IMG/VR virus record: IMGVR_UViG_3300046522_000748
DNA length: 64,000 nucleotides
Source: a virus
Lineage: Duplodnaviria; Heunggongvirae; Uroviricota; Caudoviricetes
Reading direction: 5' to 3' (one strand)
The notes under the pieces were generated by a model, which saw nothing but the letters and a program-made list of their open reading frames with translations, did not search any database and had not been told where the DNA came from. Shown piece after piece: positions 25,119-43,753 of this stretch (positions are counted from its first letter, which is position 1; each line of letters begins with the position of its first letter). Position numbers and translations under genes: made by a program.

Positions 25119-25155
25119 ACGAGAAACGAGAAATGAGCGTCTTTTGAAGCATTCA

Positions 25156-25190
25156 TAAAAAAGGCCTTACACAGTAAGGCCTTTTTGTTT
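25156..25190. terminator. bidirectional rho-independent terminator
   Basis: AAAAAAGGCCTTAC acag GTAAGGCCTTTTTGTTT, between convergent genes. Confidence 0.6.
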
Positions 25191-25199
25191 ACGCCATTA

Positions 25200-28100: not shown

Positions 28101-28862
28101 CTTGCAGTCGGTAGCGGTTTGGGTGAAGGTCGTGCCCTTGCCTATGGTGCTTGCGGCTGGTGACCAGTTCGAGCAGGCGTAGGACTCGCCCACCGCTGTC
28201 CAGCTCCCTAACGTAACCGAGTAAGGTCTGGAGGCATTTTGGTTGCTCAGTGTTTGCTGTTCCGTCACAGGCTCGCCGCTGTTGCGTACCTCTTCAGTGA
28301 AGCGTTCTTGCTCCCTGTCTTGGCGTTGACGTTCTTGATCCGTTTTACAGCTGCTGGAAGTCTGGGTAAAGGTGTTGGTGGTGGTGAATGTTGATGGATT
28401 CGGTGACCACGCCGTACAGCCATACAGGGCGTTTGTATCCGTCCAACTGGTGTAGGTCGGTGCAATGCCCAGCCAATTTTCCAGTACGCCAATCTCATCA
28501 CGCGTTTTTGAGGCGCTGATGGATTTTGATTCTGTGTAGGCGGCGTTTGGAATTGGCTCAACCACACCCGTTTTGTCATTTCGACGTTGTGGATGAACTA
28601 ACCTTGTTTGATCTTGTTTGCAGTCATCCGCTTTTTGTACAAAAGAAATCCCCTTCCCAATGCTTGAGGTTGAAGGAGACCAATTGGAGCAGCCATAGAT
28701 CTCCCCGGAAGATTTCCAGGCGTCATAAGTCGGCTCTACTTTTGTCCACCCATTGCCGGTGGTAGTGGTTAATGTGTAAAGATATCGGTAGTCATTGGCT
28801 TGCGTGAGCGCAGCCTGACTACTGAGTCCAGCTAAAACAAGTAAATGAGGTAGTAGCTTCAT
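25200..28862 (-). CDS. giant secreted tandem-repeat protein with C-terminal Ig-like region (1220 aa)
   Basis: Signal peptide MKLLPHLLVLAGLSSQAALTQA. About nine ~55-aa Cys-pair repeats arranged as ~110-aa super-repeats (TYTAW..NALYGCS.W.P...TFTQTASDC..DQTRNRQDREQE...YACSNWSP...FTQTATDCKQDQTRTR.ESYVDHKTG). C-terminal Thr/Ser/Gly-rich beta-type region. Confidence 0.65.
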   Translation of the reverse strand: MKLLPHLLVLAGLSSQAALTQANDYRYLYTLTTTTGNGWTKVEPTYDAWKSSGEIYGCSNWSPSTSSIGKGISFVQKADDCKQDQTRLVHPQRRNDKTGVVEPIPNAAYTESKSISASKTRDEIGVLENWLGIAPTYTSWTDTNALYGCTAWSPNPSTFTTTNTFTQTSSSCKTDQERQRQDREQERFTEEVRNSGEPVTEQQTLSNQNASRPYSVTLGSWTAVGESYACSNWSPAASTIGKGTTFTQTATDCKVDQTRTRAESFKDHKTGENEQVTKPNEYRTLTNQSGSKQSTGTMEQWSATTPTYTAWVNTSALNACSNWSPTGASKTTTTTFSQTASNCTTDQSRARQDREIEQNTGEIRDKGTPIVESQTLTSQTATRSYSVTLGTWINSGAKYACSNWSPAPSTVTVGQGFTQTATDCKQDQTRTRSESYVDHKTGTTVAVTVAGETQTLTGQSNTQGATGTKETWAATTPTYTAWTNTNALYGCSIWAPSPSSKTATATFTQTASDCESDQTRNRQDREQESTTLAIRNKGTPVVENQTLTAQSATRNYTVTLGAWTNNGAKYACSNWSPAPSTVTTGQSFTQTATDCKQDQTRTRAESYVDHKTGSTVAVTVAGETQTLTGQSNTQPATGTKETWAATTPTYTAWTSTKALYGCSVWMPAPSSKTATSTFTQTASDCETDQTRNRQDREQESTTLAIRNKGTAVAESQTLTGQTATRSYTVTLGTWTDSGAKYGCTNWSPATTTVAMGEAFTQNATDCSLDQSRTRNESYVDHLTGQVVAITPTNETQTLRSQADTRAATGTAAAPTASLSAPTAAFINTPLTLTWSGTNVTSYALRGSAAGSGFSTTNQAVVGSSTTATPTAAGSYVYTLTATNAIGVSATATRVVATEAAPSIGGLNVNGVSTAISVSPSAALTFAGTGISSGALLQGRNSANSAAATLPPSAASVAGTTTYYATATKTLNGVTNVGNLKSIDVTVVDNPVIGTISASTTPFTGQAFTLNWSGTGVTSYTITGSSNNSGVPVTGVNVGTATSKAITPTVAGSYTYTITGQNAVGVTKTANKTLVVDDPSAHGVVPLTGPSGTNTALQITNGVNYSGTISQMQKGVITQLSVLIGNYNNTANGVMTLNVCGSSGGCTTGTANVVGSLDNANILFQLGSAITILKGDTLTYAIAMSGSNKGPAIWMYGVDTLGNASYLSGTNGYPYIVVRYQ

Positions 28863-29034
28863 AATCCCGCCGCTAAAATTGTGTCATGTTGTCATTCTGA
28901 CTAGTATACGACCTTTTTGCCTTAATATTTAAAGTTGACTGGTCATATGTTGGCTCCATACGTCTGCTGATGTCCAGACTCTGGCCGTGATGATAGGCCA
29001 CAGAGGCGCACTGCACGCCCCTGTAGGCACCTTG

Positions 29035-29625
29035 TTAGAGCTTGATGCCCTTCTCTGCCGCTTCTTCTTTGAAGTGTTTGACTTTAGAGTCTTCGCCCAG
29101 ATGCTTGCCGATTTCATCTATCGGGTGCGTGAGCCAACGAATGAGCGAGGAATCTTGTTGCTGGGCGGGCTTTTTCTTCCATTTTCTTTTCAGGTTACCC
29201 TTCCACAATTCCGCTTTTGTGTCGGGATCAAAACGTGTTGCCTCAATGAATTTTGCGCCAACACGTTTGAATTTGACCACCTGAGGTTTGCAGGAACTAT
29301 TACCGGTGCCTTTTTCTTTGTAAACAACACTTTTGTCAGCCTGTTCCCCCATTCTCTCCAGCGGATACCGGCAGTGATGGCGATTGTTCATAGGGCCATC
29401 CCAGACGTGAAAAACGTTGTAGCTGGTCGAGCTTGGGCCGATGTAAGCCTTACCAATGATGTTGCCCTGGCCATTCATTTCACCGCGCCATACGCCTGCC
29501 AGCGAGGTGCTGTCTGTTTGTTTGAAGTTTTGTTGCTCTTTTTGTGTCTGATCTTGTGCCTGGGTCATCATGGGAGTTGAACAAACGATGCCCAATAGGA
29601 TTAATCTTGATAGTTGTCTGATCAT
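29035..29625 (-). CDS. secreted protein (196 aa)
   Basis: N-terminal signal peptide (LILLGIVCSTPMMTQA). Confidence 0.45.
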   Translation of the reverse strand: MIRQLSRLILLGIVCSTPMMTQAQDQTQKEQQNFKQTDSTSLAGVWRGEMNGQGNIIGKAYIGPSSTSYNVFHVWDGPMNNRHHCRYPLERMGEQADKSVVYKEKGTGNSSCKPQVVKFKRVGAKFIEATRFDPDTKAELWKGNLKRKWKKKPAQQQDSSLIRWLTHPIDEIGKHLGEDSKVKHFKEEAAEKGIKL

Positions 29626-29870
29626 TGTTTTTTGGCTTTCTTGGGTTTCTTTTGAATGACCACATTGGCAACGTGTTCAATCGCTACGTTTTTCATCAGT
29701 GAGTAGCCATTTTCACCGCCTTTTGTTCCGCCGCCGAACCACTGCGCCAGCAGCGCAACGGCTTCAGCGCCTTTGACCTCCTCGCCATTTTCAAACTTGT
29801 CCCTGATGCTTTGCTTGACAGTAAGTTCGCCATATTCGCCATCTTCAAACAGTTTTTCAATCTTCATCAC
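29622..29870 (-). CDS. hypothetical small protein with Lys-rich C-terminus
   Basis: Overlaps the downstream start. Confidence 0.4.
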   Translation of the reverse strand: MMKIEKLFEDGEYGELTVKQSIRDKFENGEEVKGAEAVALLAQWFGGGTKGGENGYSLMKNVAIEHVANVVIQKKPKKAKKQ

Positions 29871-29898
29871 GCACCTCGTTGGTTGGAATTACAGGCAT

Positions 29899-29931
29899 AA
29901 AAAAACCGGCAGCCCGATGGACTGCCGGTTT
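29899..29931 (-). terminator. rho-independent terminator downstream of tRNA-Thr
   Basis: Minus strand: CCGGCAG tccatcgggc CTGCCGG followed by TTTTTTT. Confidence 0.5.
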
Positions 29932-29936
29932 GTATG

Positions 29937-30012
<76 letters not shown>

Positions 30013-30329
30013 GTTGATGTGTTCATTGTATATATCTGAGCTAGGCTAGGCAAGCATTATTTCATATTTTCTTGATTATTTTATTGGATGTTTGGTCAGT
30101 TAAAAAAATGAATGCTAATGACATTCAGCCTGTGAACATAGTCGCCTTTCTTATGAATCGTTGGTGATAATGCAGGGAGGTCGCAGCATCTGGTTAGCTC
30201 GTGGCCGTAAAGCCAGGGGTTCCCCGACTGATCGTTGTTGCCTGATCACCGCTTCCACAGCCTTGTAGGCAAAGCTGCCGTCCGCACGTGGGGCCAGTAC
30301 CTACGGCAAGTCCACGCAATGCTCTTACG

Positions 30330-30446
30330 CTGCATTGGGAAAGATCGAAGCACGTCAAGGGTGACTGTTTCGCAGTCAAAAGGGAAGTAGCGACACGTCC
30401 CAGATGGTGCGTCTATCGATGTTTTCCAATGCATCCTCTTTCGAGG
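30330..30446. repeat. hairpin-capped inverted-repeat element (family copy 5)
   Basis: CTGCATTGGGAAA ... TTTTCCAATGCA (12-bp stem) followed by the hairpin CCTCTTTCGAGG. Confidence 0.4.
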
Positions 30447-30526
30447 AAGTTGGTTTTTACTGCAAAGCTTCGGCGTGATTATATGGAGCACTAGGCTATT
30501 TTGTCAATAACGAAAACATCAAGGCT

Positions 30527-30730
30527 TTAAATCGAGCAGGTTTTACGGAGCAATTCTGCCGATGGTACACTTGCCCTCACCTTTTCCTCAATTTCAATAT
30601 CGTATAGACGCATTCTCTCACGACTTTCTGCAAATCGCTTGTCGATTGCCGCAGTTTCTTCCTGTGACAACTTACCTGCATTGTATAGGCGCAATTTTTC
30701 TGTAATTTCAAGCAATGCGGCGAGGGACAT
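30527..30730 (-). CDS. hypothetical small protein
   Basis: 67-aa ORF. Confidence 0.3.
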   Translation of the reverse strand: MSLAALLEITEKLRLYNAGKLSQEETAAIDKRFAESRERMRLYDIEIEEKVRASVPSAELLRKTCSI

Positions 30731-30893
30731 TATTCTTACTTCCTGAGTTTTCGTTTAAAAGTTTAATTATACTCACAAGAAATAGTGGAGAGGCATTAAA
30801 CCGAGACGGGACTTTAACCCGTCGAACTCTGTCGTCATCACAGTGCCCTTTTCGCTCGGCCACCGATCTAATGCCTTTCCAGTACAGCCTGAA

Positions 30894-31316
30894 TTAAGAA
30901 CTTTGTGTCTCTTCTATGGGTGTCCACTTTGTGGCGTCCAACTCATGGGCTTTCCACTGATCGATACTGCCATCACCAAAGATTGTCATAATAATGTAGT
31001 CACCACATTTACGGCCATCAGTAACCTGTAGCTCATCAGGGACATAATGGCTTTTGAGCTTGGCAATTCTCTGTTTATTTTCATCAAGCAGCCAATAAAG
31101 TCCAGCATCGCAGACTTTGTAATACACACGAGCCTCAATTCCGGCTGGCCAGTTTAAAACATGACCTGAACGAAGATCGATAGTTGGCATCCAGCCATCG
31201 CCTTTCCGAAATGGAATCTTGCCTCCGGTATCAGCAACACCGTTGATATAGCCGTCTTCCCAATATCGAACGCCAGCATCTAACTCAATGAATCGCGCTT
31301 GTTTGATGTCAAACAT
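30894..31316 (-). CDS. hypothetical protein (140 aa)
   Basis: ORF with plausible composition. Confidence 0.45.
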   Translation of the reverse strand: MFDIKQARFIELDAGVRYWEDGYINGVADTGGKIPFRKGDGWMPTIDLRSGHVLNWPAGIEARVYYKVCDAGLYWLLDENKQRIAKLKSHYVPDELQVTDGRKCGDYIIMTIFGDGSIDQWKAHELDATKWTPIEETQSS

Positions 31317-31571
31317 ATTCTTGATTAATCCCGCTGCTTTTCACCAGTTTACACTATTTGCATAGGGGATCAGCTTATTACCAAGCTGATCTCCAATACA
31401 ACCTCTTGCGAGGTGATTGGGCGGTCTCTCCCGCCGTCACGGCACTACCTTCCGTCCTCGTGATACCTTTGGCGTTTCAGGTGCGTGGACTTCGATTTAT
31501 CTAATCGTCACCGTACTAAGCACTAGGCATTCTTTAGCATTTGGCCTCATTGCTGAAACCGCATGCGGGTA

Positions 31572-32417
31572 TTACTTCACATTGATGCCTGGGTTAGCGC
31601 CCGGCGCCATGATGATGCAGCTCGCACCCTTGGATTCGCAGGCCGTGGCGTACGCATTGATCGCGGCCAGTTGAATCACCTGCTCAGGGGTGTATTTCAT
31701 TTTATTTGCATACTCCTGGTCAGCATCGGCACGGGAGCCTTCCGCTTTCTTGCGCTTGATTTCAGCCTGATCGGTGGCATCCATCGTTTTCGCACGTTGC
31801 TGCTCTGCTGCTGTTTTGTTCATTTGAGAAAGCACGTCTTCATTAGGACGACCGCGACCCATGTTGAAGTCTGTAATGATAACACTAATACCGTCTTTTT
31901 TGGCGCGATCATTCAGCTCAACAAGCAGATTTTTTTCCATTTCCGCCGCAACTTTTGGATCAGTCATGATCTCTGTCATAGTGTGTGCTTTTGTTTGGTC
32001 GCGGAAGGAACTCGACCAAGGTTGGCGCAGATTGTTGTTGAACCACTCTTCGCCTTTGTTCTGAATCAGCTTACGAGCATCGGTAACCTGTACCTGAATG
32101 GAAGTGGAGAAGTCCAGGAGGATGTTGTCCGAGGTTGGCAGATCGTCAAACTGCATTGGGATTGTTTGTGGAGTCATCTGCACTGGAATCGCGATGGTGG
32201 TGTTCCACTCACGGCTACGAGTGCCTGATTTTTGTGTTTCTGGACGAACGCCTTCATGGCCCCAGAAATACGGTCGATCCACAATCACACTTTCGTAGCC
32301 GTTTTCTGTAATAACGGAATACTGGAATGTCGCCCAAATAAAAGCATAAATCACGGCGAAGATGAGCAGGAAGCCGCCTAAAAGCCCTACTGTCGCATTG
32401 CCACGCTGATTGTTCAT
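31572..32417 (-). CDS. SPFH/band-7 (stomatin/prohibitin-like) membrane protein
   Basis: N-terminal TM helix, then a band-7-like core and a charged coiled-coil tail (AAEQQRAKTMDATDQAEIKRKKAEGSRADADQ). Confidence 0.5.
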   Translation of the reverse strand: MNNQRGNATVGLLGGFLLIFAVIYAFIWATFQYSVITENGYESVIVDRPYFWGHEGVRPETQKSGTRSREWNTTIAIPVQMTPQTIPMQFDDLPTSDNILLDFSTSIQVQVTDARKLIQNKGEEWFNNNLRQPWSSSFRDQTKAHTMTEIMTDPKVAAEMEKNLLVELNDRAKKDGISVIITDFNMGRGRPNEDVLSQMNKTAAEQQRAKTMDATDQAEIKRKKAEGSRADADQEYANKMKYTPEQVIQLAAINAYATACESKGASCIIMAPGANPGINVK

Positions 32418-32612
32418 TAGATTCCCTTAATATATGTCTTCTGTCATCTCATGACGACTTAAGTTACGCGCATATAATATCCAATTATCCAATATATGTA
32501 CATTTATTTTTAGGCCCTCACGAATGACAGCGTGGTTGACTTTTCTTGCAGCTTCCATATAATGGCCTCATTCTTCACAGAGATATCATCTCTGCGCAAA
32601 CCAAGGAGCTTT

Positions 32613-32999
32613 ATGAAATCTGGTTTTCTGTTCACCGCAGCTTTCTGCCTGACAGCTGTCGTCACCCCTGCTCTCGCTGAGCCTACAGTTGTCTCCAAAA
32701 AAGGCCATAAGGTGATGTACATTAGTGATGTACACCCCGGCAACGAAGGCCTGCTGCCTGAAGCTGAGCAGATGGCGAAGCAATTCGGCACCTATGATCA
32801 ATTGGCCAACAGCATTTCGATTGATCAGGCATTCGTTTGGGTCGGGACGATCATTACAAAGGATGCAGATGCCTGCACAGAAAGCACGCATGCCATTGAT
32901 CAGTTTATCGAGAAGGAAATTAAAACCGGTAAGACGGTATCGCGTGTTGGGAAGCCTGTGATGAAGATTACCAACAAGCCGATTGCCTGCCCGGCATGA
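32613..32999 (+). CDS. small secreted protein
   Basis: AAGGAG Shine-Dalgarno, then a signal peptide MKSGFLFTAAFCLTAVVTPALA. Confidence 0.45.
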   Translation: MKSGFLFTAAFCLTAVVTPALAEPTVVSKKGHKVMYISDVHPGNEGLLPEAEQMAKQFGTYDQLANSISIDQAFVWVGTIITKDADACTESTHAIDQFIEKEIKTGKTVSRVGKPVMKITNKPIACPA

Positions 33000-33079
33000 G
33001 GCCGATTTGGCGGGGCGGCGTCCCGCCACATTGAGATCTGTGCCAGTCAACTGATTGTGTTTTCTATTCAATGTGAAAC

Positions 33080-33103
33080 AAAAAGCCCGCTCAATGGCGG
33101 GCT
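33080..33103 (-). terminator. rho-independent terminator
   Basis: Minus strand: AGCCCGC cattga GCGGGCT followed by TTTTT. Confidence 0.45.
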
Positions 33104-33125
33104 AGATTGTGACAGGCGTTCTGCG

Positions 33126-33386
33126 TCACATATTGAACGCGTCCAGGGCCTCTTTACAGGTCATCTGGTAGCCGAGCGAGGCTCCTTCTGAATCACCTCG
33201 CATTGGTCCTGTATCAGTCATGACCCAAGGTACTTCGTTTTCACCCATCGTAAACGCTAGACCGTTCTGGTCACAGGCAACCCATTGTGATCGAGAAGAA
33301 AGCTGGTCGGCTGCGGCATACGCCAATCCACAAAGCCCAAGAGCGATGAGAGCCGCCAAGATGCGCAGCTGAATTCGTATTTTCAT
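33126..33386 (-). CDS. small secreted protein (start at MKIRIQLRIL)
   Basis: Signal peptide ALIALGLCGLAYAA. Confidence 0.4.
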   Translation of the reverse strand: MKIRIQLRILAALIALGLCGLAYAAADQLSSRSQWVACDQNGLAFTMGENEVPWVMTDTGPMRGDSEGASLGYQMTCKEALDAFNM

Positions 33387-33404
33387 GTTTTCACTCGATT
33401 GATG

Positions 33405-33563
33405 TGTACCGGTTCTGCATTGGAAACCCATGTGAAGAGACTCGAACTCTCAGATCTCGGCAGTTTGTCCCGACCGTGGATCGCGCGCCTTCCCGGTTCT
33501 GAGTCCCGGTTTAGGTGCCGCCTGCGTCTACCAATTTCGCCACACATGGGTTTCCAATGCAGC
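33405..33563. repeat. hairpin-capped inverted-repeat element (family copy 1) enclosing a tRNA-like gene
   Basis: 20-bp perfect IR CTGCATTGGAAACCCATGTG (33405-33424 / 33532-33551), then the hairpin CCTCCTAGGAGG (33552-33563). Confidence 0.5.
33417..33538 (-). tRNA. tRNA-Leu-like (type II-like) gene, ~122 nt, with ~35 nt extra between D and T arms; no CCA
   Basis: Minus strand: acceptor CCATGTG/CACATGG (7 bp). 5' TGGCGAAATTGGTAGACGC matches the tRNA-Leu D arm. T arm GAGAG-TTCGAGT-CTCTT. I could not resolve the anticodon arm. Confidence 0.35.
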
Positions 33564-33744
33564 CTCCTAGGAGGATGTTTTGGGCAGGGCTGGAGGCAAA
33601 TTCCAGCTTTTCAAAGTGCCTTGGCCACGGGTTACATCACGTATAGCTTAATGAAAAGCAGCCCCGTTATTATGCGACAGCCGTTGCCGATTGAACGACA
33701 TTCCTGCTTTTGAATTATACAATATTTTCTTAAAAATATTATAT

Positions 33745-33838
33745 GCATCGGCAGAATGATTTGGTGATGGATTCGAACCATCGTCCCGGAATACCGCGCC
33801 GCTGATCAAACGGCCCTGCCAAATCACTCTCCGATGCA
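33745..33838 (-). ncRNA. tRNA-like hairpin element (GCATCGG-stem family, copy A)
   Basis: ~19-bp imperfect stem GCATCGGcAGAaTGATTTGG/CCAAATCAcTCTcCGATGC enclosing a T-arm-like hairpin GATGG-ATTCGAA-CCATC and an anticodon-like hairpin. It cannot be folded into a full cloverleaf. Confidence 0.3.
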
Positions 33839-34678
33839 CTCTCGTGAGAGAGTGTGGTCGGCATACGTATGCCGATTGATGCACATGACCGGTGCTTATC
33901 TCCGGCTTGGCGGATATGCCACTCCCAGGCATTGCTGCCTGCCATTTTCCACCTATGCCATGGTTGGCCCAGAGGCAGTAGCGCTTCAGCTAGCGCATCC
34001 ATATGCATCGGGGAGTGATCAAGCACAAGCCAATCACTTTCCGATGCACTCTCGTGTGAGAATGCAGTAAAACGTGTGACACAAATGACCGGCACTGAAC
34101 TCCGGCTTTAAGGCGCCAAATCCACCATGCCGTTTCGGGTTTGCTTCCAGGTGGCAATTAAGCTCTCAGTTATCTGGGCTGCGCATCAGCCTACGCATTC
34201 ATTCGCATCGGGGTGTGATCTGGCCGGTGCTGGTCTCCGGCATTCGTGGTTATCTGGTGGCCTGCAACCTTCAGGCTCTACGAACTGGGCACAACCCCAA
34301 CGTCAGATTCGCATTACTTGGAATCACCGAACAGCTCCCGGATGTTTGTGGTTACGGGAGTGCCTGTCCGATGTGTTCCCCACGATCAAGCTTGCTTGCG
34401 CATCAGCCTACGCATTCAGATCACACCCCGATGCGCTCTCAAAGAGAGTAATCGGGCAGTTAGCGACAGGCTGTCGTGCAGTGATTCTGTGTCCGAAGGA
34501 GGTCGGACCGGCATGCAAGGCCATTACGCCATTCACCCACCTATCGGGCTCTGTCACCCCTTCATAACGCGTTCGGGGTTTTACGCGGCGATCCAGACTT
34601 ACTTTTATATGGGGTTCCAGGGTCGCATCTCGCCCATTTCGTTTTGGCTTACGCCTAATTCTTGCGGTGCATCTGAAG

Positions 34679-34802
34679 CTGTATTGGAATGTCGGTCCAC
34701 ACCATTTTGTGCAATCAACGTCCGGGTGTTCGCCACAATCCGATTGCTCTGGAGATGCTTTTTTAATGACCCGCCGACATTCCGATACAGCCTCTTTCGA
34801 GG
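34679..34802. repeat. hairpin-capped inverted-repeat element (family copy 2)
   Basis: CTGTATTGGAATGTC (34679-34693) pairs with GACATTCCGATACAG (34776-34790), including one G.U pair. Followed by CCTCTTTCGAGG (34791-34802). Confidence 0.45.
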
Positions 34803-35110
34803 TGATCGGGCCGTCTTTCCGGCTGTCGCAGACCAACGATTGAGCCGGTAGGTCTGAACGGCTATCCCTTTATGCGCTTGGGAGTCCAGCGGCCGGTTAA
34901 CCCCGGTCAGGATTCTTTGTGACACTCATCTTACGTGAGGAGTGTGGTATTCGGGTGACGCTGATGGCCGGTACTGAACTCCGGCTTGACGCTCTCCTGG
35001 GCGTGTTAGCGTATTTCGCCTCGCAAGTGGTCTCTCACCACCTCTTCCCTTTCGGGTTGCCCCAGCCAGTTGCGCATCAGCCTGCGCATTCATCAACATC
35101 GGTGTTGCTA

Positions 35111-35198
35111 TGGAGCGGGTACATGGATTCGAACCATCAGCCGCTAAGCCGCCTTCATCCACTAGTAGGATTTGCCCCCGTTGGGCTCGGTTCCCCGC
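35111..35198 (-). tRNA. aberrant tRNA-like gene (~88 nt) with encoded CCA
   Basis: 3' end ...GATGG-TTCGAAT-CCATG-TACCCGC-T-CCA and 5' GCGGGGA (6/7 acceptor pairs). The D and anticodon arms are non-canonical (anticodon-like loop TACTAGT). Likely a pseudo-tRNA or a type II variant. Confidence 0.3.
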
Positions 35199-35203
35199 AA
35201 ATC

Positions 35204-35274
35204 TGGCGCCCCTACGTGGAGTTGAACCACGCGACTGACGCATGATCAGTGCGACCGTCAATCCCTCCAGGGCA
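35204..35274 (-). tRNA. aberrant short tRNA-like gene (~71 nt) with encoded CCA
   Basis: T arm CGTGG-TTCAACT-CCACG; 3' acceptor TAGGGGC-G-CCA; anticodon-like stem-loop ACTGA-TCATGCG-TCAGT; rudimentary D arm. Confidence 0.3.
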
Positions 35275-35416
35275 AATTCTAATGCAAATGGCCGGTACTG
35301 AACTCCGGCTCAGCCAATCTTTTCTGTTAGGCAGTTTCAACGGCATGCCGTCTCATATACCTGTAAACCCTTTTGGCCCATCCAGTTTCTCAGTGCGCCT
35401 CAGTCGGCGCCAACAT

Positions 35417-35491
35417 CTGCATTGGTAGGTTTACCGAATTGAGCCGCGCTAAACGGTTTCCAGTGAACCTCCAATACAGCCTCTTTCGAGG
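35417..35491. repeat. hairpin-capped inverted-repeat element (family copy 3, short)
   Basis: CTGCATTGGTAGGTT (35417-35431) pairs with GAACCTCCAATACAG (35465-35479), then CCTCTTTCGAGG (35480-35491). Confidence 0.4.
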
Positions 35492-35524
35492 CTAATCCTG
35501 CCAGCCGCTTCTTTGTCTTGCCAT

Positions 35525-35770
35525 TTACACGTGCCGATTGATTTTGAGCGTCCATTCGCGGTCGCCATCTTCTGACAGCGCGACCTCGTGAGACTTTTTC
35601 AGCGCTCTGACAATGACGCTCTCTGTGGCCAGGACAGGCTCTTTGTCTTCATCGTCACCAATTTCCGCAGCCAAATACAGCTTTTCTGCCGCCACTTCCT
35701 TAACCAGCGCTTTGCGGGTCGTATAGACAGTGATCTCGTAGGCTTCGTTAACGGTTGTGTAAATCGTCAT
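35525..35770 (-). CDS. possible small acidic protein (81 aa) inside the RNA island
   Basis: Only sizeable ORF in this region with protein-like composition; weak Shine-Dalgarno. Confidence 0.25.
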   Translation of the reverse strand: MTIYTTVNEAYEITVYTTRKALVKEVAAEKLYLAAEIGDDEDKEPVLATESVIVRALKKSHEVALSEDGDREWTLKINRHV

Positions 35771-35852
35771 CAGAAATTCCGTAATCTGTTTGGTGTGCAA
35801 TCGCACAGTGCATTGGGGTGAAATCTGACCGGATGTGATCCCGGCATGTGCT

Positions 35853-35920
35853 GGTGGACTCGAACCACCGACGCGCCTTTTGCGAGGCCGCTCTACCGAC
35901 TGAGCTACGCACTACGCTAT
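35853..35920 (-). tRNA. tRNA-like pseudogene (5' half GCGTAGCTCAGTCGGTAGAGCG plus T arm GGTGG-TTCGAGT-CCACC)
   Basis: Canonical D arm and T arm, but neither the acceptor nor the anticodon stem can be paired. Confidence 0.3.
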
Positions 35921-36029
35921 CTGTTCACCGGGCCTAGGAATCCCGTCACCGTCAAGCCTATTGAGTCACAAACTCACTTTCAGATTCCACCCCAATGCAT
36001 CCCCAAAGGGGCAGTGGACTTAAAACTGC

Positions 36030-36175
36030 ATTAGTGGAGGCAGCGAAAACTACATGCCATGCTTCGGATATTATCCGAGTCAGGGAATTGAACCCCGGAG
36101 ACACCCAATTTGATGCTTGCCGAGTGTTCGATGCTTCCCTAATGCAGTTTTGTTTACAAGAGCATGTTCTGCTCT
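36030..36175. repeat. inverted-repeat element variant (CTGCATTAG ... CTAATGCAG) enclosing T-arm-like sequence
   Basis: 9-bp IR with the same CTGCATT core. Inside lies CCGGGG-TTCAATT-CCCTG. Followed on the minus strand by the hairpin ACAAGAGC-AGAACAT-GCTCTTGT. Confidence 0.3.
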
Positions 36176-36187
36176 TGTTGGGCTATT

Positions 36188-36216
36188 CTAGCGAGACTAG
36201 ATGTCTGTGTCAATAT
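36188..36216 (-). promoter_or_regulatory. sigma70-like promoter reading into the RNA island (TTGACA-N17-TAGAAT)
   Basis: Minus strand: TTGACA cagacatctagtctcgc TAGAAT. Confidence 0.35.
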
Positions 36217-36257
36217 CATTTTTAGGTTTTTTGAGTGTATTCGTATTTGATACTGAT

Positions 36258-36575
36258 TTAGTGGATGGCAAGCACATTACTTCGCTGAATCATCAAAATA
36301 TCATCTATCTGTAATCCGTGATAATTTGTATTTTTAAGCACGTTGGCAACTGAGCCGTACATGTGAAGTGGCCCTACTGCCAGAAGATCCACCCAGAACG
36401 CTTCACTGCCTTTTTTGCCGTAATCGCCTACGCCCACTTTCACATAATCGCCAACCTCTAATGAATAAAGTTCGTCTGCGTCCGGAAGCGTTATGGCAAT
36501 GTCTGGCTTGCCTGCGATTTCTTGTGCGTCATGGAGATCTGCGTGTTTAACTGAATTTGGGTCAAATGTGGTCAT
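36258..36575 (-). CDS. hypothetical protein (105 aa)
   Basis: ORF. Confidence 0.45.
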   Translation of the reverse strand: MTTFDPNSVKHADLHDAQEIAGKPDIAITLPDADELYSLEVGDYVKVGVGDYGKKGSEAFWVDLLAVGPLHMYGSVANVLKNTNYHGLQIDDILMIQRSNVLAIH

Positions 36576-36634
36576 GGTTCGCTCTAATAATGTGAGTGGT
36601 CGTTAGCGGCAAGTGGTTTGAATTTCATATATTA

Positions 36635-37108
36635 TCAAATGTGCGCTTCAAGCGCCTCTTTCTTGCGTCGGAAGATTTGCTTCTTCCTGCTTAAGACTTC
36701 GTTGTCGATGTCGCCAATGTCATGGCCTCGTTTTTCATGAGTAATCAGCGCCGCAATCATCGCATTATTAAGCTTGGTAAAAGTGCCGATATAAGTGGAT
36801 TCACCCTCATCGTTGGAGAGATATGGCACGGACTCCTCGTAATAAACGGAGAATTCATTGGGGGTGTGGAACAGTCGAACAACCTCGGCATGGCCACCAT
36901 AATGCTCGCCAAAATTATTACCTTGAGTCGGTGTGGTGCAAATGCGCACGCCGACTAGTTCTCCTTCCTCGACGTTCCGATAGTTGTACACGCCCTGATA
37001 GACCGAAAATCCATGAAAATCGTTTGCTGATTTCACGGATGCCAATCGCACAAATTCTTTGTCCTTTAGCATTTCGTCAATTTGTTCGTCATTTATTAAG
37101 TCTTTCAT
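36635..37108 (-). CDS. hypothetical protein (start at MKDLINDEQ with GAGGG Shine-Dalgarno)
   Basis: ORF 36635..37171; the start is placed at the in-frame ATG with a Shine-Dalgarno. Confidence 0.45.
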   Translation of the reverse strand: MKDLINDEQIDEMLKDKEFVRLASVKSANDFHGFSVYQGVYNYRNVEEGELVGVRICTTPTQGNNFGEHYGGHAEVVRLFHTPNEFSVYYEESVPYLSNDEGESTYIGTFTKLNNAMIAALITHEKRGHDIGDIDNEVLSRKKQIFRRKKEALEAHI

Positions 37109-37237
37109 GATTCGCCCTCTGTAGCCTCTGTATTGTTCAATTATACAGGAATCTCGTAACTCATACCTCATGTCACTATCATTGACATATGCCTGGATGA
37201 TGGTTAAAATATCGCTAATTCAACACAGGTGCGGATT

Positions 37238-37633
37238 ATGATTACTCCAGAACTGTTGCAACAAAAGGCTCAACAGGCATCAGGCATAGAACAACATTTT
37301 TTGACCCTGGCTCAGCAATTTATGGTGCGCCAAAACATGAGTGGCGCCGCTGCTGTCGGCTCATTCATCGATCAAAACCTGAAGGTTCCAAAAGCTGGTG
37401 AGCGTGTTTTGATGCCCGCTGGTGTGGAAATTCGAACGACTGGCAAGAAAGGCGTCTTCACGTCGAAGCGCAAGCAGATTGTGACGGTTCACCGGGTAAG
37501 TGATGGCGGTCTCTATGAGGAGCGCGGAGAGGTCGTGGAGATCCCTGCATCCATCATCTGGGCTGGCGCCGGAGGTTATTGGTGCGAGGTCGCTGTCCGT
37601 GACTGGGCGAGCGCTGCGGGTATAGTCGGTTGA
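37238..37633 (+). CDS. hypothetical protein
   Basis: AGGTG Shine-Dalgarno 8 nt before the ATG. Confidence 0.45.
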   Translation: MITPELLQQKAQQASGIEQHFLTLAQQFMVRQNMSGAAAVGSFIDQNLKVPKAGERVLMPAGVEIRTTGKKGVFTSKRKQIVTVHRVSDGGLYEERGEVVEIPASIIWAGAGGYWCEVAVRDWASAAGIVG

Positions 37634-37671
37634 CAGCAGGGTGCTGCCCTACCCTGACTTTAAACTCAAAC

Positions 37672-37714
37672 TAAAAAGCCGATGCCCTTCTTCTGGTCAT
37701 CGGCTTTTGCGTTT
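37672..37714. terminator. bidirectional rho-independent terminator
   Basis: AAAAAGCCGATG ...13 nt... CATCGGCTTTTGCGTTT, between convergent genes. Confidence 0.55.
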
Positions 37715-37723
37715 GGTTGTGTG

Positions 37724-39373
37724 TTAGGAAATCCGGAATTTACCAACCATCTGATTCAGTGAAACAACCACCTTGTCGAGGTCAATCAGGGAGTGTTGAG
37801 CCTCTTGAATGACATCGCGGCTTTGTTGGCTACCGGCGCTGATCGACTCAGCCGCTTTGGCCATCTCGGCGGTGGCTTGTGACTGTTCACTGGTCGCATG
37901 GTTGATGACTTGAATCTTTTCAACAATGGAATTCATGTCGGCGCGAATCCCTTCGATCTGGGTAATGGCCTGATCAGATAGAAGTACCCCATTGTTAACG
38001 GAATGGCTGGTTTTGGCCATCCGCTGGGTGGCCTGTGCGGTTTCCTCACCCACTGCCTTGATCATGTCGGCGATCTGCACGGTCGCTGTGGAGGTGCGGC
38101 TTGCAAGAGTTCTGACCTCATCAGCGACTACAGCAAATCCACGGCCTGATTCACCCGCCCGAGCGGCCTCAATCGCGGCGTTGAGCGCCAGAAGATTTGT
38201 TTGGTCAGCGATGGAGCGAATCACGTCAACGATGTTGCTGATGTCTTTAGAGCGTGCCTGGAGGTTGCTGATAACTTGTGACAGGTCATTGACCTGATTG
38301 CTGATGGCTTCGATCTCTCCCGCTACTGCGCCAACGGCTTTGGAGCTGCTTTGCGACTTCTCACTCGACTCCTGAACCACTCTGGCAGTCTCATGCGTGC
38401 TTTCAGCAATGTTGTGCATGGTGGCCGTAATTTCTTCGATAGTTGCAGCCGTTGTGGTCGCCTTATCGCTCTGCTCCTGAGAGTCGGCATGAATGACTCT
38501 CATCATTTGGCTCATGTCATGAAAGCCGGTTTTGAGCTTAGTGGCCTCATCTCGGATGACTGCAAACATCTCACGCAAGTCGCCAACAAATCTGTTGAAG
38601 GCAACGGCCATTTGGCCGGTTTCATCCTTGCTGTTCACCGGCAGCATGCGGGTCAAATCCCCTTGGCCAGAAGACAGGTCATTGAGTGCCTGGAGAAAGC
38701 TATTCAGTGAGCGAGATACCAGATTTCCAAGCAGGAATGCAGCGAGTAGCGCGATGATGAATGCGACGCCGCCCACCAGGGCCACTTCCATCACGACGCG
38801 TTTGCGTGCTTCGGTCACGTCTTTTAGATCGGCGTCGGCGGCAATCACGTATTTATCACCATTGGGGGCAATGGCGCGCACGTAGAGCGTTCTGAACTCG
38901 CCATCTGCTGATGAGTACTCAAGATTCCCGGTAGCGCCGGTCAGCAGCACGCTTTTGACGATATCCTTGGCTTCCTGATTATCATAGGTGTGCAAGTAGT
39001 AATTAACGCCCTTGCTAAGTTCATCGTCAGTCAGGGATGAGGTGGCGAATACCACATCGCCGCTTTCATTGAGAACAAAGGTATAGAGATAAGGCAGGCC
39101 TAGTTTTTTGGAGAGCTTGGTCAGCATCAGCGACTGGTCGGTGCCAAAAGAGTCGTCTTTCCCTGAGCGACCAACATTTTGGTGAACCTTCGGATCGACA
39201 GAGAATTCAACGGCATGAATTGCAGTCAGCAGCTTTGTGTCAATTTCATCCATCGCCATCTTTTCTGCGTTACCCCAAAAGGCTGATGCGAAAATGGCGA
39301 TGAGAATTAATGACACGGCGATAAATGAAACCCTGACTTTGCTATGAAAGCGCAGATTGTTGAACCACTGCAT
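37724..39373 (-). CDS. methyl-accepting chemotaxis protein (MCP)
   Basis: Two TM helices around a periplasmic domain, a HAMP region, then the highly conserved MCP signalling domain ([35 protein letters not shown]). Confidence 0.8.
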
Positions 39374-39573
39374 GGATGCTCCGATATATTTTATATTTAA
39401 TGATTAAGTTTGGCTGGCGCGGACTATACGCACCGCATTTAAAGGGGTCAACAGAGGACTGAGGGGTGGACTTACCACTGGTCGGCAAAAGGTGCTGGTT
39501 TTTTGTTGAAGTAACAAAAGCGCTGTTGCAGGGCTGATGGCGTGACAAATTCGAGCATGCATTTATGTCGGAA

Positions 39574-39610
39574 ATGAAAAAGCGGATACCAAATTGCTCT
39601 GGTATCCGCT
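39574..39610 (-). terminator. strong rho-independent terminator (minus strand)
   Basis: GCGGATACCA gagcaatt TGGTATCCGC followed by TTTTT on the minus strand. Confidence 0.55.
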
Positions 39611-39905
39611 ACATGTCGGTCGCACTACGCATCCCTATTGCTAGGGGCACTGAGTCTGAATCTCAGCCCGTTGCCAACTCTTTTCCGGTTAACCCACTAC
39701 TACCCGGATTTATCTTCGCCTTATGGGGAAAGCTAAACACAATGGCGTCCGCTGATCTCACGCTTTTGGCCAGTCATCTGTCGAGCGCACGTCGCTCCAA
39801 GCCTTGTGGGCGCAATGGCGGGTCACTTTCACTGGGATGTCCACCGCTATATTTCTCAGGCCGGGCATGGTTACCCATGCGTGATCGCACCTGAACAGCA
39901 CTTCA
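39611..39905 (-). ncRNA. candidate ~300-nt small RNA between IR element copy 4 and the terminator
   Basis: No minus-strand ORF of 60 aa or more. Bounded upstream by the hairpin/IR element and downstream by the terminator. Contains internal hairpins (CATGG-gtaac-CCATG). Confidence 0.3.
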
Positions 39906-39959
39906 TTGTATTGGAATGCGATGCAGTGGCATGACATTCCAATACAACCCCTTACGGGG
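39906..39959. repeat. hairpin-capped inverted-repeat element (family copy 4)
   Basis: TTGTATTGGAATG (39906-39918) pairs with CATTCCAATACAA (39935-39947), a 13-bp perfect stem, followed by CCCCTTACGGGG (39948-39959). Confidence 0.45.
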
Positions 39960-40079
39960 AGTGTTGGGCGTTTTATTCGGCAAGAACCTCGCGGCTCCCG
40001 CAGGCCAGACTACCTCTGGCGCCTTTTGGTAGACGTTTAATATGACCGTCTTGAAAAGACAAAAACCATCCAGTCATTC

Positions 40080-40156
40080 TGGAGCCGGTGACAGGAATCG
40101 AACCTGCATAACGATGATTTGCAATCATCAGCCTAGCCTTTCAGCAACACACCGGC
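40080..40156 (-). tRNA. tRNA-Cys (anticodon GCA), CCA encoded
   Basis: Acceptor GCCGGTG/CACCGGC, anticodon arm GATGA-TTGCAAA-TCATC, T arm GCAGG-TTCGATT-CCTGT, discriminator T plus CCA. Confidence 0.75.
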
Positions 40157-40401
40157 ATGCTCTTTTCAACTGATTAGGCAATCATTTAAGCCGTGCTTTT
40201 ATGATTTCCACTTCAGTCTATATTCTTGAACTTATGGTTAATATTCAGAAGGGTGAGCGTCAAATCTCACCCTCCTCGCCCGTTCTCAGGCGAACAACTG
40301 GATATGTTCAGTTGCCAATCCCTTATTACAGCACAGGGTCTGCCTCCCAATATTATGGCAAACGGGAGCACCTATTCACGGAAACCATCCGCAAAAACTG
40401 G

Positions 40402-40475
40402 CTGGCGATGCTGGGCTCGAACCAGCGACCTAATGATTAACAGTCATTTGCTACTACCAACTGAGCTAATCGCCA
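40402..40475 (-). tRNA. tRNA-Asn (anticodon GUU), no CCA encoded
   Basis: Acceptor TGGCGAT/ATCGCCA, U8-A9, D arm GCTC-AGTTGGTAG-TAGC, anticodon arm AATGA-CTGTTAA-TCATT, T arm GCTGG-TTCGAGC-CCAGC. Confidence 0.8.
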
Positions 40476-40678
40476 ACATAAACTCTAAAGATGTATTCGT
40501 GTAACACCGAGATTGTGGGCCTCCAATCGGCCAAGAAAAACAGTGTTACGCGAATGTTCTTGTCAGAAGTCTTTCAAATGCAAACACGCATAAAACAGAA
40601 CTATCTCCACTATAAGCCAAGTACGAGCCTGGATTATAGTGTGGCCAGAGCTTGCACCCTGACCGGAATAAAATTTCG

Positions 40679-41068
40679 TCAGTCTTCTCGGACAAACCTG
40701 AAGCCTGTAACCGCTGCGAAATCTGGCACATGGTCACCATTATAAATCAGCTTCCACTTTTTGTTCGCCAGCTCTTCCAAATGAAACATACGCTTATCGG
40801 TTTTCACCGCTACGGGCTTGATCATTTCGAATTCGCCCAGACCTTTTATTGAAAATTTGCCGTTTGACAAGTCAATCGACTCAACATCAACAATGTCTTT
40901 TACATCGGATTCGTCGTTCGAGAAAAAGTATGTGTTAAAGGTCAATCGCCATGTCCCATCTGGAAGTTCATCCAAGTGAAACAGGTTTTTCCGGATTTTA
41001 ACTGCTGTTACACCACTCAATTCAAGTGTAATGTCAGTTCCAACCAGCTCAATTGCCCTTCGAAACAT
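40679..41068 (-). CDS. hypothetical protein (129 aa)
   Basis: ORF between tRNA genes. Confidence 0.45.
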   Translation of the reverse strand: MFRRAIELVGTDITLELSGVTAVKIRKNLFHLDELPDGTWRLTFNTYFFSNDESDVKDIVDVESIDLSNGKFSIKGLGEFEMIKPVAVKTDKRMFHLEELANKKWKLIYNGDHVPDFAAVTGFRFVRED

Positions 41069-41116
41069 GCTGATCCCTTAAAAACTAGAGTGGTCATTTA
41101 GACCACTCTTTTTATT

Positions 41117-41204
41117 TGGCGGAGGCGAAGAGATTCGAACTCTTGGACCTGTTACAGTCGGCAGTTTTCAAGACTGCTGCCTTAAGCCACTCGGCCACAC
41201 CTCC
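41117..41204 (-). tRNA. tRNA-Ser (anticodon UGA), type II, CCA encoded
   Basis: Nearly identical in layout to E. coli tRNA-Ser(UGA): GGAGGTG-T-GGCCGAGTGG..., anticodon loop CTTGAAA, long variable arm, T arm AAGAG-TTCGAAT-CTCTT, then CGCCTCC-G-CCA. Confidence 0.85.
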
Positions 41205-41439
41205 AAACTTTTTAGAGCTATTAACTCATCATCAAGAGTTTCTGTTTCCAGTCACTCTGGATCATAAGTCAACTACGCCTATTATTGAACCGGGCGAAGC
41301 GGTTACCTCTTGCTACCACTGGTAGCCGAGCAACAAGAGTTTGGAATTTGCTAGCTGTTTTAATTTCTAGCTGGTTCCGAACCCTATGTCGCTATAATAA
41401 GCATCTAAGCATCGCGTGTCAACAAAAATCTCAACTATT

Positions 41440-42321: not shown

Positions 42322-42410
42322 GCGTGCCTCGGTATATTTTGTTTGTGTGATTATAGCTTGGCTTTGAAGATTTTCAATTTTTCATTGAGTCGAGTGCCAG
42401 CGGATAGGAT

Positions 42411-42686
42411 TTAATTCACGGCTTCTGCTGCACTCTCAATTGCATCATTTCTCATGCGCTCAATCGAGGTAATTAGTGCTGCTTTGGTCTCTGTGAATGG
42501 GATATCATCTTCAATGAAATATTGAATAGCCAAACAATGTGCGAAGATCGGTATTTGAGCATCAGTAATATCTTTTAGCCCATTTTCATCCACGGCTAAT
42601 TCTTCCGGGTTCCAGAAAAAAGGCTCCCTGCCCTGCATTGCTGGCATAAGAAGTTCCAATTTTGGAGTGAATGGAATTTTCTGCAT
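42411..42686 (-). CDS. hypothetical small protein
   Basis: 91-aa ORF. Confidence 0.35.
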   Translation of the reverse strand: MQKIPFTPKLELLMPAMQGREPFFWNPEELAVDENGLKDITDAQIPIFAHCLAIQYFIEDDIPFTETKAALITSIERMRNDAIESAAEAVN

Positions 42687-42730
42687 ATTATGGGTGCTCG
42701 TTGAGTGGGTTGATTGAGGTTCTTCGCCGA

Positions 42731-43696: not shown

Positions 43697-43728
43697 TAAT
43701 AATCCTTAAATAAAAAAATTATATCACA

Positions 43729-43753
43729 GAAAAAAGGCCGCTTTCGCGACCTT
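43729..43753 (-). terminator. possible terminator (8-bp stem with one mismatch, then T-run)
   Basis: Minus strand: AAGGTCGC gaaa GCGGCCTT followed by TTTTTT. Confidence 0.3.

Follow-up and report, generated by a model that had tools for sequence, protein, structure and literature searches.

What does a phage carry in a long gap that seems to hold no genes? The question is raised by a stretch of 64,000 nucleotides from IMG/VR virus record IMGVR_UViG_3300046522_000748 (Caudoviricetes), referred to here as the window, in which an island at about 33400-36200 contains only short open reading frames (ORFs) that overlap one another on both strands. The original prediction, made from the letters of the sequence, described four independent families of short RNA motifs in this island: (a) long stems capped by GCATCGG, (b) a 25-nt hairpin motif, (c) a second repeat found three times and (d) mini-hairpins beside the GCATCGG elements. 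Our comparison of sequences and folds partly supports that interpretation and indicates that the families are not independent. Families (b) and (c) are two hairpins of one cloverleaf-shaped RNA module, to which part of family (a) contributes the closing stem, other members of (a) being neighbouring hairpins.

Motif and repeat scans recover all four families close to the positions first reported. Family (c), TGCGCATCAGCCTRCGCATTC, occurs exactly at 34180, 34397 and 35071 (3 observed against 0.01 expected in shuffles), so that the predicted count of three holds although the starts had been placed at 34177, 34394 and 35064; two diverged copies, at 33980 and 35395, come from the repeat finder (direct-repeat families D1/D4). 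Family (b) has the four predicted copies, exact at 33885, 34085, 34964 and 35288, and a fifth, with three mismatches, at 34220 that had been overlooked, giving a count of 5 against 0.00 expected in shuffles. The three stems listed for family (a) are real inverted repeats (33753-33764/33819-33830, reaching 33745/33838; 34004-34019/34033-34048; and 34204-34222/34417-34435, which is 19 nt long with 100% complementarity), but stems of the same type lie beyond the range and list first given. Further long stems based on TGCAT(C/T)GG are found at 33415-33434/33543-33562, 34675-34695/34774-34794, about 35418-35434/35462-35478, 35809-35828/35980-35999 and 36022-36039/36134-36151, and the repeat finder returned, besides the four families, a series of 16-21-nt inverted repeats starting TGCAT(C/T)GG, nearly all of them perfect. 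The suspicion that the ORFs of the island are spurious is borne out by their overlap on both strands and by the absence of any PHROG match for the eight ORFs scanned inside it. Two flanking ORFs brought the number scanned to ten, and one of these two has a weak PHROG match, to a family of unknown function.

Read as minus-strand RNA, the motifs fall into a fixed order: closing stem P1, the bases AAU, hairpin c', a hypervariable arm, hairpin b' and the second strand of stem P1. Stem P1 has at least 7 bp and up to 21 bp of any sequence, and the AAU that follows is unpaired. Hairpin c', which is motif (c) read on the minus strand, combines a 5-bp stem with the loop GGCUGA; hairpin b', motif (b) on the same strand, has a 5-bp stem and a 9-nt loop, AGAUCAGCR or AGUUCAGYR. 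The middle arm ranges from about 10 to 190 nt and can be a whole tRNA (transfer RNA). Among viral contigs, motif (b) lies 40-180 nt to one side of motif (c) in 86/122 cases, and when 80 distinct b-to-c segments were folded, the outer flanks of b and c paired with each other, with wholly different sequences in each phage. That the arms of a pair are complementary and yet differ between pairs points to selection on a folded single strand and not to copied sequence.

Covariation was counted on the P1/c'/b' structure in an alignment (A1) of 37 non-redundant units, all from other phages. The seven P1 pairs that adjoin the junction (pairs 6-12) are formed in nearly all sequences of A1, with four to five pair types each. 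Overall, 89% of the alignment cells pair, a figure that drops to about 30-45% if partners are shifted by 1-3 columns, and the observed covariation was reached by 0/500 shuffles. The c' stem covaries (GCGC, GAGC, GCCC, GCGU, GCGA, GUGC, GCAC) around its invariant loop, and the b' stem varies between GCCGG and GUCGG. Because the b' stem abuts the 3' strand of stem P1 in A1 with no spacer, the two should stack coaxially into a 7+5 = 12-bp helix, the geometry of the acceptor/T arm of a tRNA. At about 80-90 nt, the smallest units are the size of a tRNA and form four-way junctions. The 111 matches contain 101 distinct variable arms, which fall into 88 similarity clusters and have modest folding z-scores. 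The claim that this is a non-coding region dense in conserved RNA structure is thus upheld by stems P1, c' and b', all of which covary across unrelated phages.

A covariance model (R1) built from A1, with no window sequence included, finds five units in the window (U1-U5 in the table below), all on the minus strand and spanning 33876-35425. Three points had escaped the original prediction, namely that the motifs form one element, that the minus strand is the informative one and that the element reaches to 35425 and further. The long-range pair of family (a) is stem P1 of U3, whose two ends are matched separately by R1 because of the long insert between them. The other two listed members of family (a) are hairpins just 5' of units on the RNA. 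Many units have such a hairpin, which re-uses the sequence of the P1 5' strand (for example at 2530-2610 of the phage P1 locus L126, and at 34004-34048 and 35418-35478 of the window); the base of the hairpin and stem P1 are therefore mutually exclusive or branch-migrating, and this alternative is a possible switch. A divergent sixth unit, on which R1 has no match, lies outside the five.

The loops of the two hairpins are complementary, GCUGA(U) of c' with (A)UCAGC of b', and this complementarity is kept through two-sided changes in three independent cases. In locus L073, GUGGUGA stands with GAUCACCU; in U1, GACUGA stands with AGUUCAGUA, one pair having changed from G-C to A-U, and G-U intermediates are seen in other copies; in the divergent unit, UGUGA stands with UCACA. 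We infer that pairing between the c' and b' loops takes the place of the D-loop/T-loop elbow of a tRNA. A reading of the b' loop as a mimic of the 3' end of 16S ribosomal RNA (rRNA), suggested by the L073 variant GAUCACCUCC, was set aside as a coincidence because the canonical loop differs.

The module is found far outside the window. A 20-mer of motif (c) occurs in at least 120 IMG/VR viral contigs, the c motif is present in 263 phage records with hosts including Klebsiella, Escherichia, Pseudomonas, Burkholderia and Aeromonas, and an exact 19-mer is found in at least 120 bacterial species of the Gamma-, Beta-, Alpha- and Deltaproteobacteria. The enterobacterial version is present in 1589/5426 complete Escherichia coli genomes; among the matches listed, none overlaps an annotated feature. 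At the loci inspected the module stands mostly in unannotated gaps, often in tRNA arrays. Motifs that are conserved in many unrelated genomes and sited in unannotated gaps do not fit the coding origin or the recent local duplication that the original prediction had named as its possible undoing. The 16-mer core was not found in the library of papers searched, 11-12-mers turning up only in unrelated papers, and the module was not found in the supplements of the Pas paper and the 10,006-csRNA paper.

Named phages carry the module with scores of 53-83 bits (HK620, P1, mEp460, Stx2a_1447, IME11 and others). In HK620 it lies between pR'/qut and the late terminator tQ, and in mEp460 and Stx2a_1447 in a leader of about 700 nt, free of ORFs, between cI and the first early-left gene. 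In phage P1 it belongs to the ban operon, after tRNA-Asn and tRNA-Thr, and two ORFs, upl (of unknown function) and plp (a putative lipoprotein), have been annotated there on the opposite strand; together they cover the module (L126 2304-2873), plp also overlaps tRNA-Thr, and the two are probably not real genes. The Klebsiella Ackermannviridae phage UPM 2146 has a 3.3-kb ORF-free island (L202 300-3635) adjoining tRNA-Arg and tRNA-Met, which holds the module, a copy of STnc100, an Rfam family, at 897-1110 (47 bits), and six or more further perfect 12-19-bp stems with payloads of 50-190 nt, the design of the window island in an unrelated lytic phage family. The N4-like Escherichia phage IME11 has a 2.1-kb ORF-free island with tRNAs, in which sub-threshold Rfam matches to permuted transfer-messenger RNA (tmRNA; 33 bits) and to alpha-tmRNA lie immediately 5' of the unit (L203 2638-2840, minus strand). 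Pseudomonas phages phi2 and Aurca01 and Burkholderia phage phi644-2 are further carriers. Stem P1 is often followed directly by a terminator (mEp460, HK620), and elsewhere by a ribosome-binding site and start codon. In a simple scan, 24/125 units have a terminator-like site no more than 160 nt downstream, which in 14/125 comes directly after stem P1. In mEp460 (L122 3440-3500, minus strand) CGCUCUUUUUACAA, a sequence similar to boxA of rrn and the lambda nut sites, comes after the hairpin that trails the unit, and may be a Nus-dependent antitermination site instead of, or besides, a terminator.

The link to tRNA genes is seen in counts of neighbouring genes. Nineteen of 129 units (124 IMG/VR loci) have a tRNA within 1 kb, whereas random positions give 7.6 +/- 2.1 (at most 12 in 200 trials), and all of these nearby tRNAs (19/19) share the strand on which c' is read first. 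For flanking long ORFs, agreement with the unit's orientation outnumbers disagreement by 61 to 16. Spacing is tight, tRNAs starting 0, 1, 3 or 15 nt past a unit or ending 2 or 7 nt ahead of one. At L107:7011-7206 (plus strand) a complete tRNA (ARAGORN: Ser, gct) is nested between c' and b', and in Pseudomonas phage ZC03 a unit stands within a ten-tRNA array. ARAGORN finds six tRNA genes in the window, all on the minus strand. The association with tRNAs that had been proposed for the island is therefore seen both in its tRNA-rich minus-strand transcription unit and in relatives that sit within tRNA arrays.

The island also contains long stems, mini-hairpins and tRNA-like sequences (see the table). 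Pseudo-tRNAs were anticipated, and degenerate tRNA-like sequences do occur at 33415-33562, 33745-33838, 35115-35196, 35208-35276 and 35847-35912. The second of these has a canonical T-arm, GAUGG-UUCGAAU-CCAUC, adjoining the 3' strand of its stem. The first has a canonical D-arm (GCGAAAUUGGUAGACGC) and T-arm with an insert of about 70 nt that includes a b'-like hairpin, CCGG-GACUCAGAA-CCGG, and is called by ARAGORN only with introns allowed. The pair at 35115-35276, between U1 and U2, is missed by default ARAGORN and by Rfam and is called only at relaxed ARAGORN thresholds; the two sequences could be pseudogenes or odd functional tRNAs. Mini-hairpins of 4-6 bp abut long stems directly in at least seven places, and the same arrangement is found in Pseudomonas phage Aurca01, a temperate phage of P. 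syringae. Window 34428-34810 matches, at about 92% nucleotide identity, a 900-nt gap without annotation in that phage (L001 4001-4565), and the modules common to the two stand in a different order; the match suggests a Pseudomonas-like host and module exchange among phages. The phage collection contains no close relative of the window phage: only tRNA-sized matches were found in it, and RIIA is at most 33% identical. Consensus scans place a promoter and a terminator-like site at the two edges of the island and no terminator-like site between the units, which suggests a single precursor of about 3 kb.

Features of the island and its borders; positions are those of the window, and D and I numbers denote direct-repeat families and inverted repeats
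Feature	Position	Strand	Evidence	Details
U1	35279-35425	minus	R1 37.7 bits, E 2e-8	b' 35289-35309, loop AGUUCAGUA; c' ~35395-35411 (GCGCC-GACUGA-GGCGC)
U2	34955-35102	minus	R1 57.1 bits, E 1e-13	b' 34965-34985; c' 35071-35092; P1 7 bp (GUUGAUG/CAUCAGC)
U3, most complete copy	34204-34435	minus	R1 29.7 + 20.9 bits; I3; fold closes on P1	perfect 19-bp P1 (34204-34222 with 34417-34435); b' 34221-34241; c' 34397-34418; arm ~155 nt
U4	34076-34211	minus	R1 52.1 bits, E 3e-12; exact motif matches	b' 34086-34106, loop AGUUCAGUG; c' 34180-34201; short P1 (AAUGA/UCAUU plus extension)
U5	33876-34011	minus	R1 44.9 bits, E 2e-10; D1-D4	P1 ~33876-33885 with 34002-34011; b' 33886-33906, loop AGAUAAGCA; c' ~33982-33999 (GCGCU-AGCUGA-AGCGC); loops partly degenerate
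Divergent sixth unit	35809-35999	minus	I2, fold; architecture read from sequence	20-bp P1, AAG, c'-like hairpin UGAG-UUUGUGA-CUCA, variable region with tRNA-like sequence 35847-35912 (sub-threshold Rfam tRNA match, 27.7 bits), b'-like GCCGG-GAUCACAU-CCGGU abutting P1
Long-stem hairpin (family a)	33745-33838	minus	I17 + extension; fold -54 kcal/mol	56-nt tRNA-like payload
16-bp hairpin	34004-34048	minus	I11; fold; R1 alignment of U5	13 nt between arms; 3' arm overlaps U5 P1 5' strand
Mini-hairpin (family d)	33839-33856	minus	D5; fold	directly 5' of long stem on RNA
Mini-hairpin (family d)	34049-34064	minus	D5; fold	
Mini-hairpin (family d)	34925-34947	minus	fold; copy at 34925 read in sequence	
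Other mini-hairpins	34436-34448, 35479-35492, 36001-36011, 33563-33574	minus	folds	
Long-stem module	34675-34794	minus	I4; blastn; Aurca01 inverted repeat I2	21-bp stem, 78-nt payload, without b'/c'; ~92% identity to Aurca01
Stem around class-II-tRNA-like cloverleaf	33415-33562	minus	I1; fold	perfect 20-bp stem
Long-stem module	36022-36151			encloses tRNA-like or unrelated payload, as do 33415-33562, 33745-33838 and 34675-34794
CCA-ending tRNA-like sequence	35208-35276	minus	read from sequence	anticodon loop CUGAUCA (GAU), reduced D-arm
CCA-ending tRNA-like sequence	35115-35196	minus	read from sequence	CUA in loop, resembles amber suppressor
93-aa ORF, GTG start	35525-35806	minus	Pfam and PHROG searches both without match	sole non-overlapped ORF within island
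Sigma-70-like promoter	36185-36213	minus	consensus scan only	TTGACA-17-TAGAAT, 11/12; island's upstream edge
Terminator-like site	33084-33103	minus	consensus scan only	6-GC stem + T-run; island's downstream edge
Weaker terminator-like match	32978-32995	minus	consensus scan only	further downstream

Several neighbours of the island are worth recording. A 549-aa ORF at 37724-39373 (minus strand) has HAMP and methyl-accepting chemotaxis protein (MCP) signalling domains and is thus a methyl-accepting chemotaxis protein, an unusual cargo for a phage; the genome around it is otherwise phage-like, with RIIA/RIIB at 76-3730. Among the tRNA genes there are an SPFH/Band-7 protein (31572-32417, minus strand) and a weakly matched radical-SAM protein (41440-42321, minus strand; 28 bits, slightly below the Pfam cut-off). 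The stretch 11001-13000 has a GC content of 0.34-0.38, compared with about 0.50 elsewhere, and holds minus-strand ORFs of 322 and 305 aa with no Pfam match; it may be foreign DNA.

Taken together, these observations are best accounted for, with a probability of roughly 55%, if the island is one minus-strand transcription unit that carries, in tandem, five or more canonical copies and a single divergent one of a tRNA-shaped scaffold with variable RNA cargo. The P1/c'/b' frame would be the scaffold. Host nucleases that process tRNA and rRNA would excise the module from a polycistronic precursor of the tRNA type, and the frame would protect the RNA. The variable arm, different in every copy, would be the effector, for example a base-pairing or protein-binding small RNA (sRNA); a base-pairing role is suggested by analogy with the sRNAs PasD and STnc100.

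Several results weigh against this proposal. G-U wobble pairs number 20 on the proposed strand and 16 on the opposite one and do not choose between the two, and an earlier, cruder count leaned toward the opposite strand; the strand is therefore assigned from context. That context is opposite for flanking ORFs at 16/77 loci, and in at least one phage (Bas79) the module is opposite in direction to the annotated genes that flank it. The arms of U1-U5 are no more complementary to other parts of the window than shuffles are. Stem P1 is often much longer than 7 bp and a CCA end is absent, so classical recognition by RNase P is doubtful. The lack of terminators between the window units, and the presence of terminator-like sites at only 24/125 units elsewhere, mean that the Hfq-type sRNA design of STnc100 is not general. 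Finally, the STnc100 model (RF02076) misses the module, and the link to that family therefore rests on architecture and genomic slot and not on score.

A bolder version of the scaffold proposal is tentative. In this version, phages throughout the Proteobacteria may possess a natural tRNA scaffold in which a Watson-Crick helix between loops replaces the elbow and is read by a host machine for tRNA shape (RNase P or another elbow reader), which would excise, stabilise and deliver any cargo placed at the anticodon position. The cargo could be an sRNA seed, a decoy or a tRNA, and the array in the window would be a programmable battery of such cargoes. Binding by this host machine would explain why the loops are nearly invariant from Alpha- to Gammaproteobacteria.

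It is doubtful, though worth weighing with care, that the modules are instead cis-acting processing punctuation, that is, tRNA look-alikes that would direct cleavage by RNase P, Z, E or III and have no RNA function of their own, the cleavage serving to separate tRNAs, leaders and mRNAs and to set transcript ends. The position of units in tRNA slots at spacings of 0-15 nt fits this idea, as does the 12-bp helix formed by P1 and b', and the perfect 19-21-bp P1 stems of the window resemble RNase III processing stems. Units also stand in the long untranslated early-left and late leaders and in the phage P1 ban operon. Plant mitochondrial t-elements, as described in PMC1920247, offer a precedent, and rRNA processing stems likewise. 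However, simple punctuation leaves unexplained the near-invariant loops across proteobacterial classes, the compensated pairing between them, the hypervariable insert of up to 190 nt and the five tandem copies, and the 7-bp P1 of many members is too short for RNase III.

A function at the level of DNA is unlikely. On this account the module would be a cassette or recombination linker, resembling a miniature inverted-repeat transposable element (MITE) or a boundary sequence, with P1 as its inverted repeats and b and c as recombination or nuclease sites, and would spread without any RNA function. Modules have indeed been shuffled between unrelated phages, as the 92% match of window 34428-34810 to Aurca01 in another order illustrates. 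In E. coli prophages homology breaks exactly at the module border, with inserts of 795, 816 or 873 bp or a module of another type, exact 19-20-mers are common to distant hosts, and the G-U counts favour neither strand. On the other hand, the inverted repeats are wholly different between copies and yet complementary within each pair, which is the opposite of transposon ends, and compensatory changes keep the loops complementary. Co-orientation with tRNAs is complete (19/19). Among 40 sampled E. coli loci there is no empty site, the slot being filled by alternative modules, and no common transposase or recombinase is evident beside the module in the contexts inspected.

The leaders occupied by the module in lambdoid phages could also suggest a cis-acting antitermination or anti-Rho RNA for long untranslated stretches, analogous to HK022 put or to boxA-type sites of rrn, and this we consider quite improbable. 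The module does lie just downstream of early or late promoters and upstream of terminators in mEp460 and Stx2a_1447, where no N is annotated, and between pR'/qut and tQ in HK620; it also stands in untranslated tRNA arrays, which Rho would be able to attack. But HK022 itself lacks the b/c motif in the stretch 24000-32000, and HK620 has its own Q, with the module more than 400 nt past the annotated qut. Five tandem copies would be unnecessary and the hypervariable arm remains unexplained, and the terminator that directly follows P1 in 14/125 units is more like the 3' end of an sRNA than a read-through device. Decayed tRNA genes with recent local duplications and no present function, an idea to which the degenerate tRNA-like sequences and the TGCAT(C/T)GG bases of P1 shared among window units lend themselves, can scarcely be credited when the structure and two near-invariant loops are conserved in hundreds of unrelated phages and at least 120 bacterial species, with compensatory changes in the stems that neutral decay does not preserve.

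Judged by these sequence comparisons, the module appears to be an uncatalogued variant, found very widely, of a kind of phage sRNA that is already known. If this is correct, an abundant structured RNA has been overlooked in P1, HK620, mEp460 and Stx2 phages, in nearly a third of the complete genomes of E. coli and in lytic phages belonging to several families. STnc100 and PasD would be joined to a much larger superfamily of tRNA-like design, and the combination of scaffold and variable arm would become a hypothesis for those sRNAs too. Large ORF-free islands beside phage tRNAs would be accounted for, such as the 2-3 kb left blank by annotators in UPM 2146 and IME11, and a covariance model of the module would clear spurious ORF calls from annotation.

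Against Rfam 15, cmscan with E up to 10 gave no match on the units in window 29000-46000 and in the mEp460 leader. Hammerhead, twister and other ribozymes, C4, isrK, YrlA, GOLLD/ROOL and tmRNA were ruled out as identities, since the Rfam scans of the window and its relatives, both permissive and at the gathering threshold, were empty on units. The resemblance to tRNA (RF00005), and with it to t-elements and mascRNA, is one of shape: a four-way cloverleaf with a 7+5-bp coaxial helix like the acceptor/T arm, a D-like hairpin preceded by a short linker, contact between D-like and T-like loops, a minimum size of about 80 nt and a location within tRNA arrays on the tRNA strand. The loops, however, are GGCUGA and AGAUCAGCR, not the GG of a D-loop and the UUCRANY of a T-loop, their contact consists of 5-6 Watson-Crick pairs, and an anticodon-like loop is absent. 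Nor is there a CCA or free acceptor end after a 7-bp stem; the sequence past pair 7 of P1 varies and often extends the helix, often to 12-21 bp. Neither Rfam nor ARAGORN finds a tRNA match on U1-U5.

Other known systems share single traits with the module. YrlA (RF02553), which phages or prophages likewise carry, also combines a long terminal stem with a tRNA-like domain, but the long stem of the module joins at the acceptor position and not at the anticodon position; RF02553 has no match on the units, its sole weak match falling on true tRNAs at 44891-44955, and no Rsr/Ro (TROVE) domain or other partner protein was found in 20 window ORFs scanned against Pfam. The non-coding RNA arrays of the UG27 reverse transcriptase likewise consist of units of about 150 nt, conserved in structure and diverse in sequence, with a basal hairpin and a pseudoknot (bioRxiv 10.64898/2026.09.22.753630). 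They are tied to a reverse transcriptase operon and were described in Bacteroides prophages (bioRxiv 10.64898/2026.09.22.753630). A scan of the 20 larger ORFs of the window showed no reverse transcriptase domain, nor do the inspected stretches of P1, HK620 and mEp460 carry a gene with that annotation. HK022 put is a structured RNA with two conserved hairpins in early-operon leaders of lambdoid phages, but has no closing stem and no variable insert. It was rejected as an identity, motifs b and c both being absent from HK022 24000-32000 (early operons).

These sequences do have a relative in current catalogues, and the nearest is STnc100, which together with PasD belongs to the Hfq-associated sRNAs that lambdoid and Stx prophages carry in Salmonella and E. 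coli. The consensus core of RF02076 reads caUGGUG, AAUC, a 5-bp hairpin with a 6-nt loop, variable hairpins, CCGGG-AGGCA-CCCGG and CACCAug, followed by a terminator. Compared with alignments A1 and A3, it shows the design of the module too, namely a closing stem followed by AAU(C), a first hairpin of 5 bp whose loop has 6 nt, a variable middle and a last hairpin, of CCGG type and again 5 bp, set directly against P1 on its 3' strand, and in enterobacterial copies the junction sequence UGGUG-AAU...CACCA is identical. Both occupy late leaders near Q/holin, early-left leaders and the phage P1 ban operon, and a Rho-independent terminator follows the core in part of the module family (mEp460, HK620). 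The module differs in its 9-nt b' loop (AG-AUCA-GCR, not AGGCA) and its c' loop GGCUGA, in loops that are complementary and co-varying, where no such complementarity was seen in STnc100, and in a far wider host range (Alpha-, Beta-, Gamma- and Deltaproteobacteria) that includes lytic phages with the module in tRNA arrays. The STnc100 terminator occupies model positions of about 148-206, whereas the window units have no terminators of their own. Across window 29000-46000 RF02076 (gathering threshold 47 bits) remained without a match at E values of up to 10, and it had none on the b'/c' units of mEp460, HK620, P1 and other annotated phage loci at E up to 0.1.

The two kinds of module nevertheless meet in the same genomes and even in the same slot. 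Phage P1 carries an STnc100-like copy (33 bits) immediately downstream of its b'/c' unit, and R1 touches that copy at 18.6 bits; the UPM 2146 island likewise contains both kinds. In E. coli prophages with identical flanks (yfdP and a downstream hairpin) and an identical stem P1 (GUUGUGGUG/CACCACAAC), the slot is filled either by a b'/c' module or by an STnc100-type module, the latter scoring 35.6 and 45.4 bits on RF02076. Because of its failure to score on RF02076, its different terminal loop and the absence of a terminator of its own in the window, the module is best regarded as a sister of the STnc100 core and not a member of RF02076. STnc100 is expressed, one copy lying 75 nt downstream of stx2 (PMC12370729). 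PasD is a Northern-verified, Hfq-dependent sRNA with many partners in RIL-seq (ligation and sequencing of interacting RNAs), and is reported to be a structural homologue of STnc100 (PMC8550237; bioRxiv 10.64898/2026.05.13.724894). Hfq association is a property of STnc100 and PasD as described in the literature (PMC8550237, PMC12370729), and it is as a sister of their shared core domain that we regard the module.

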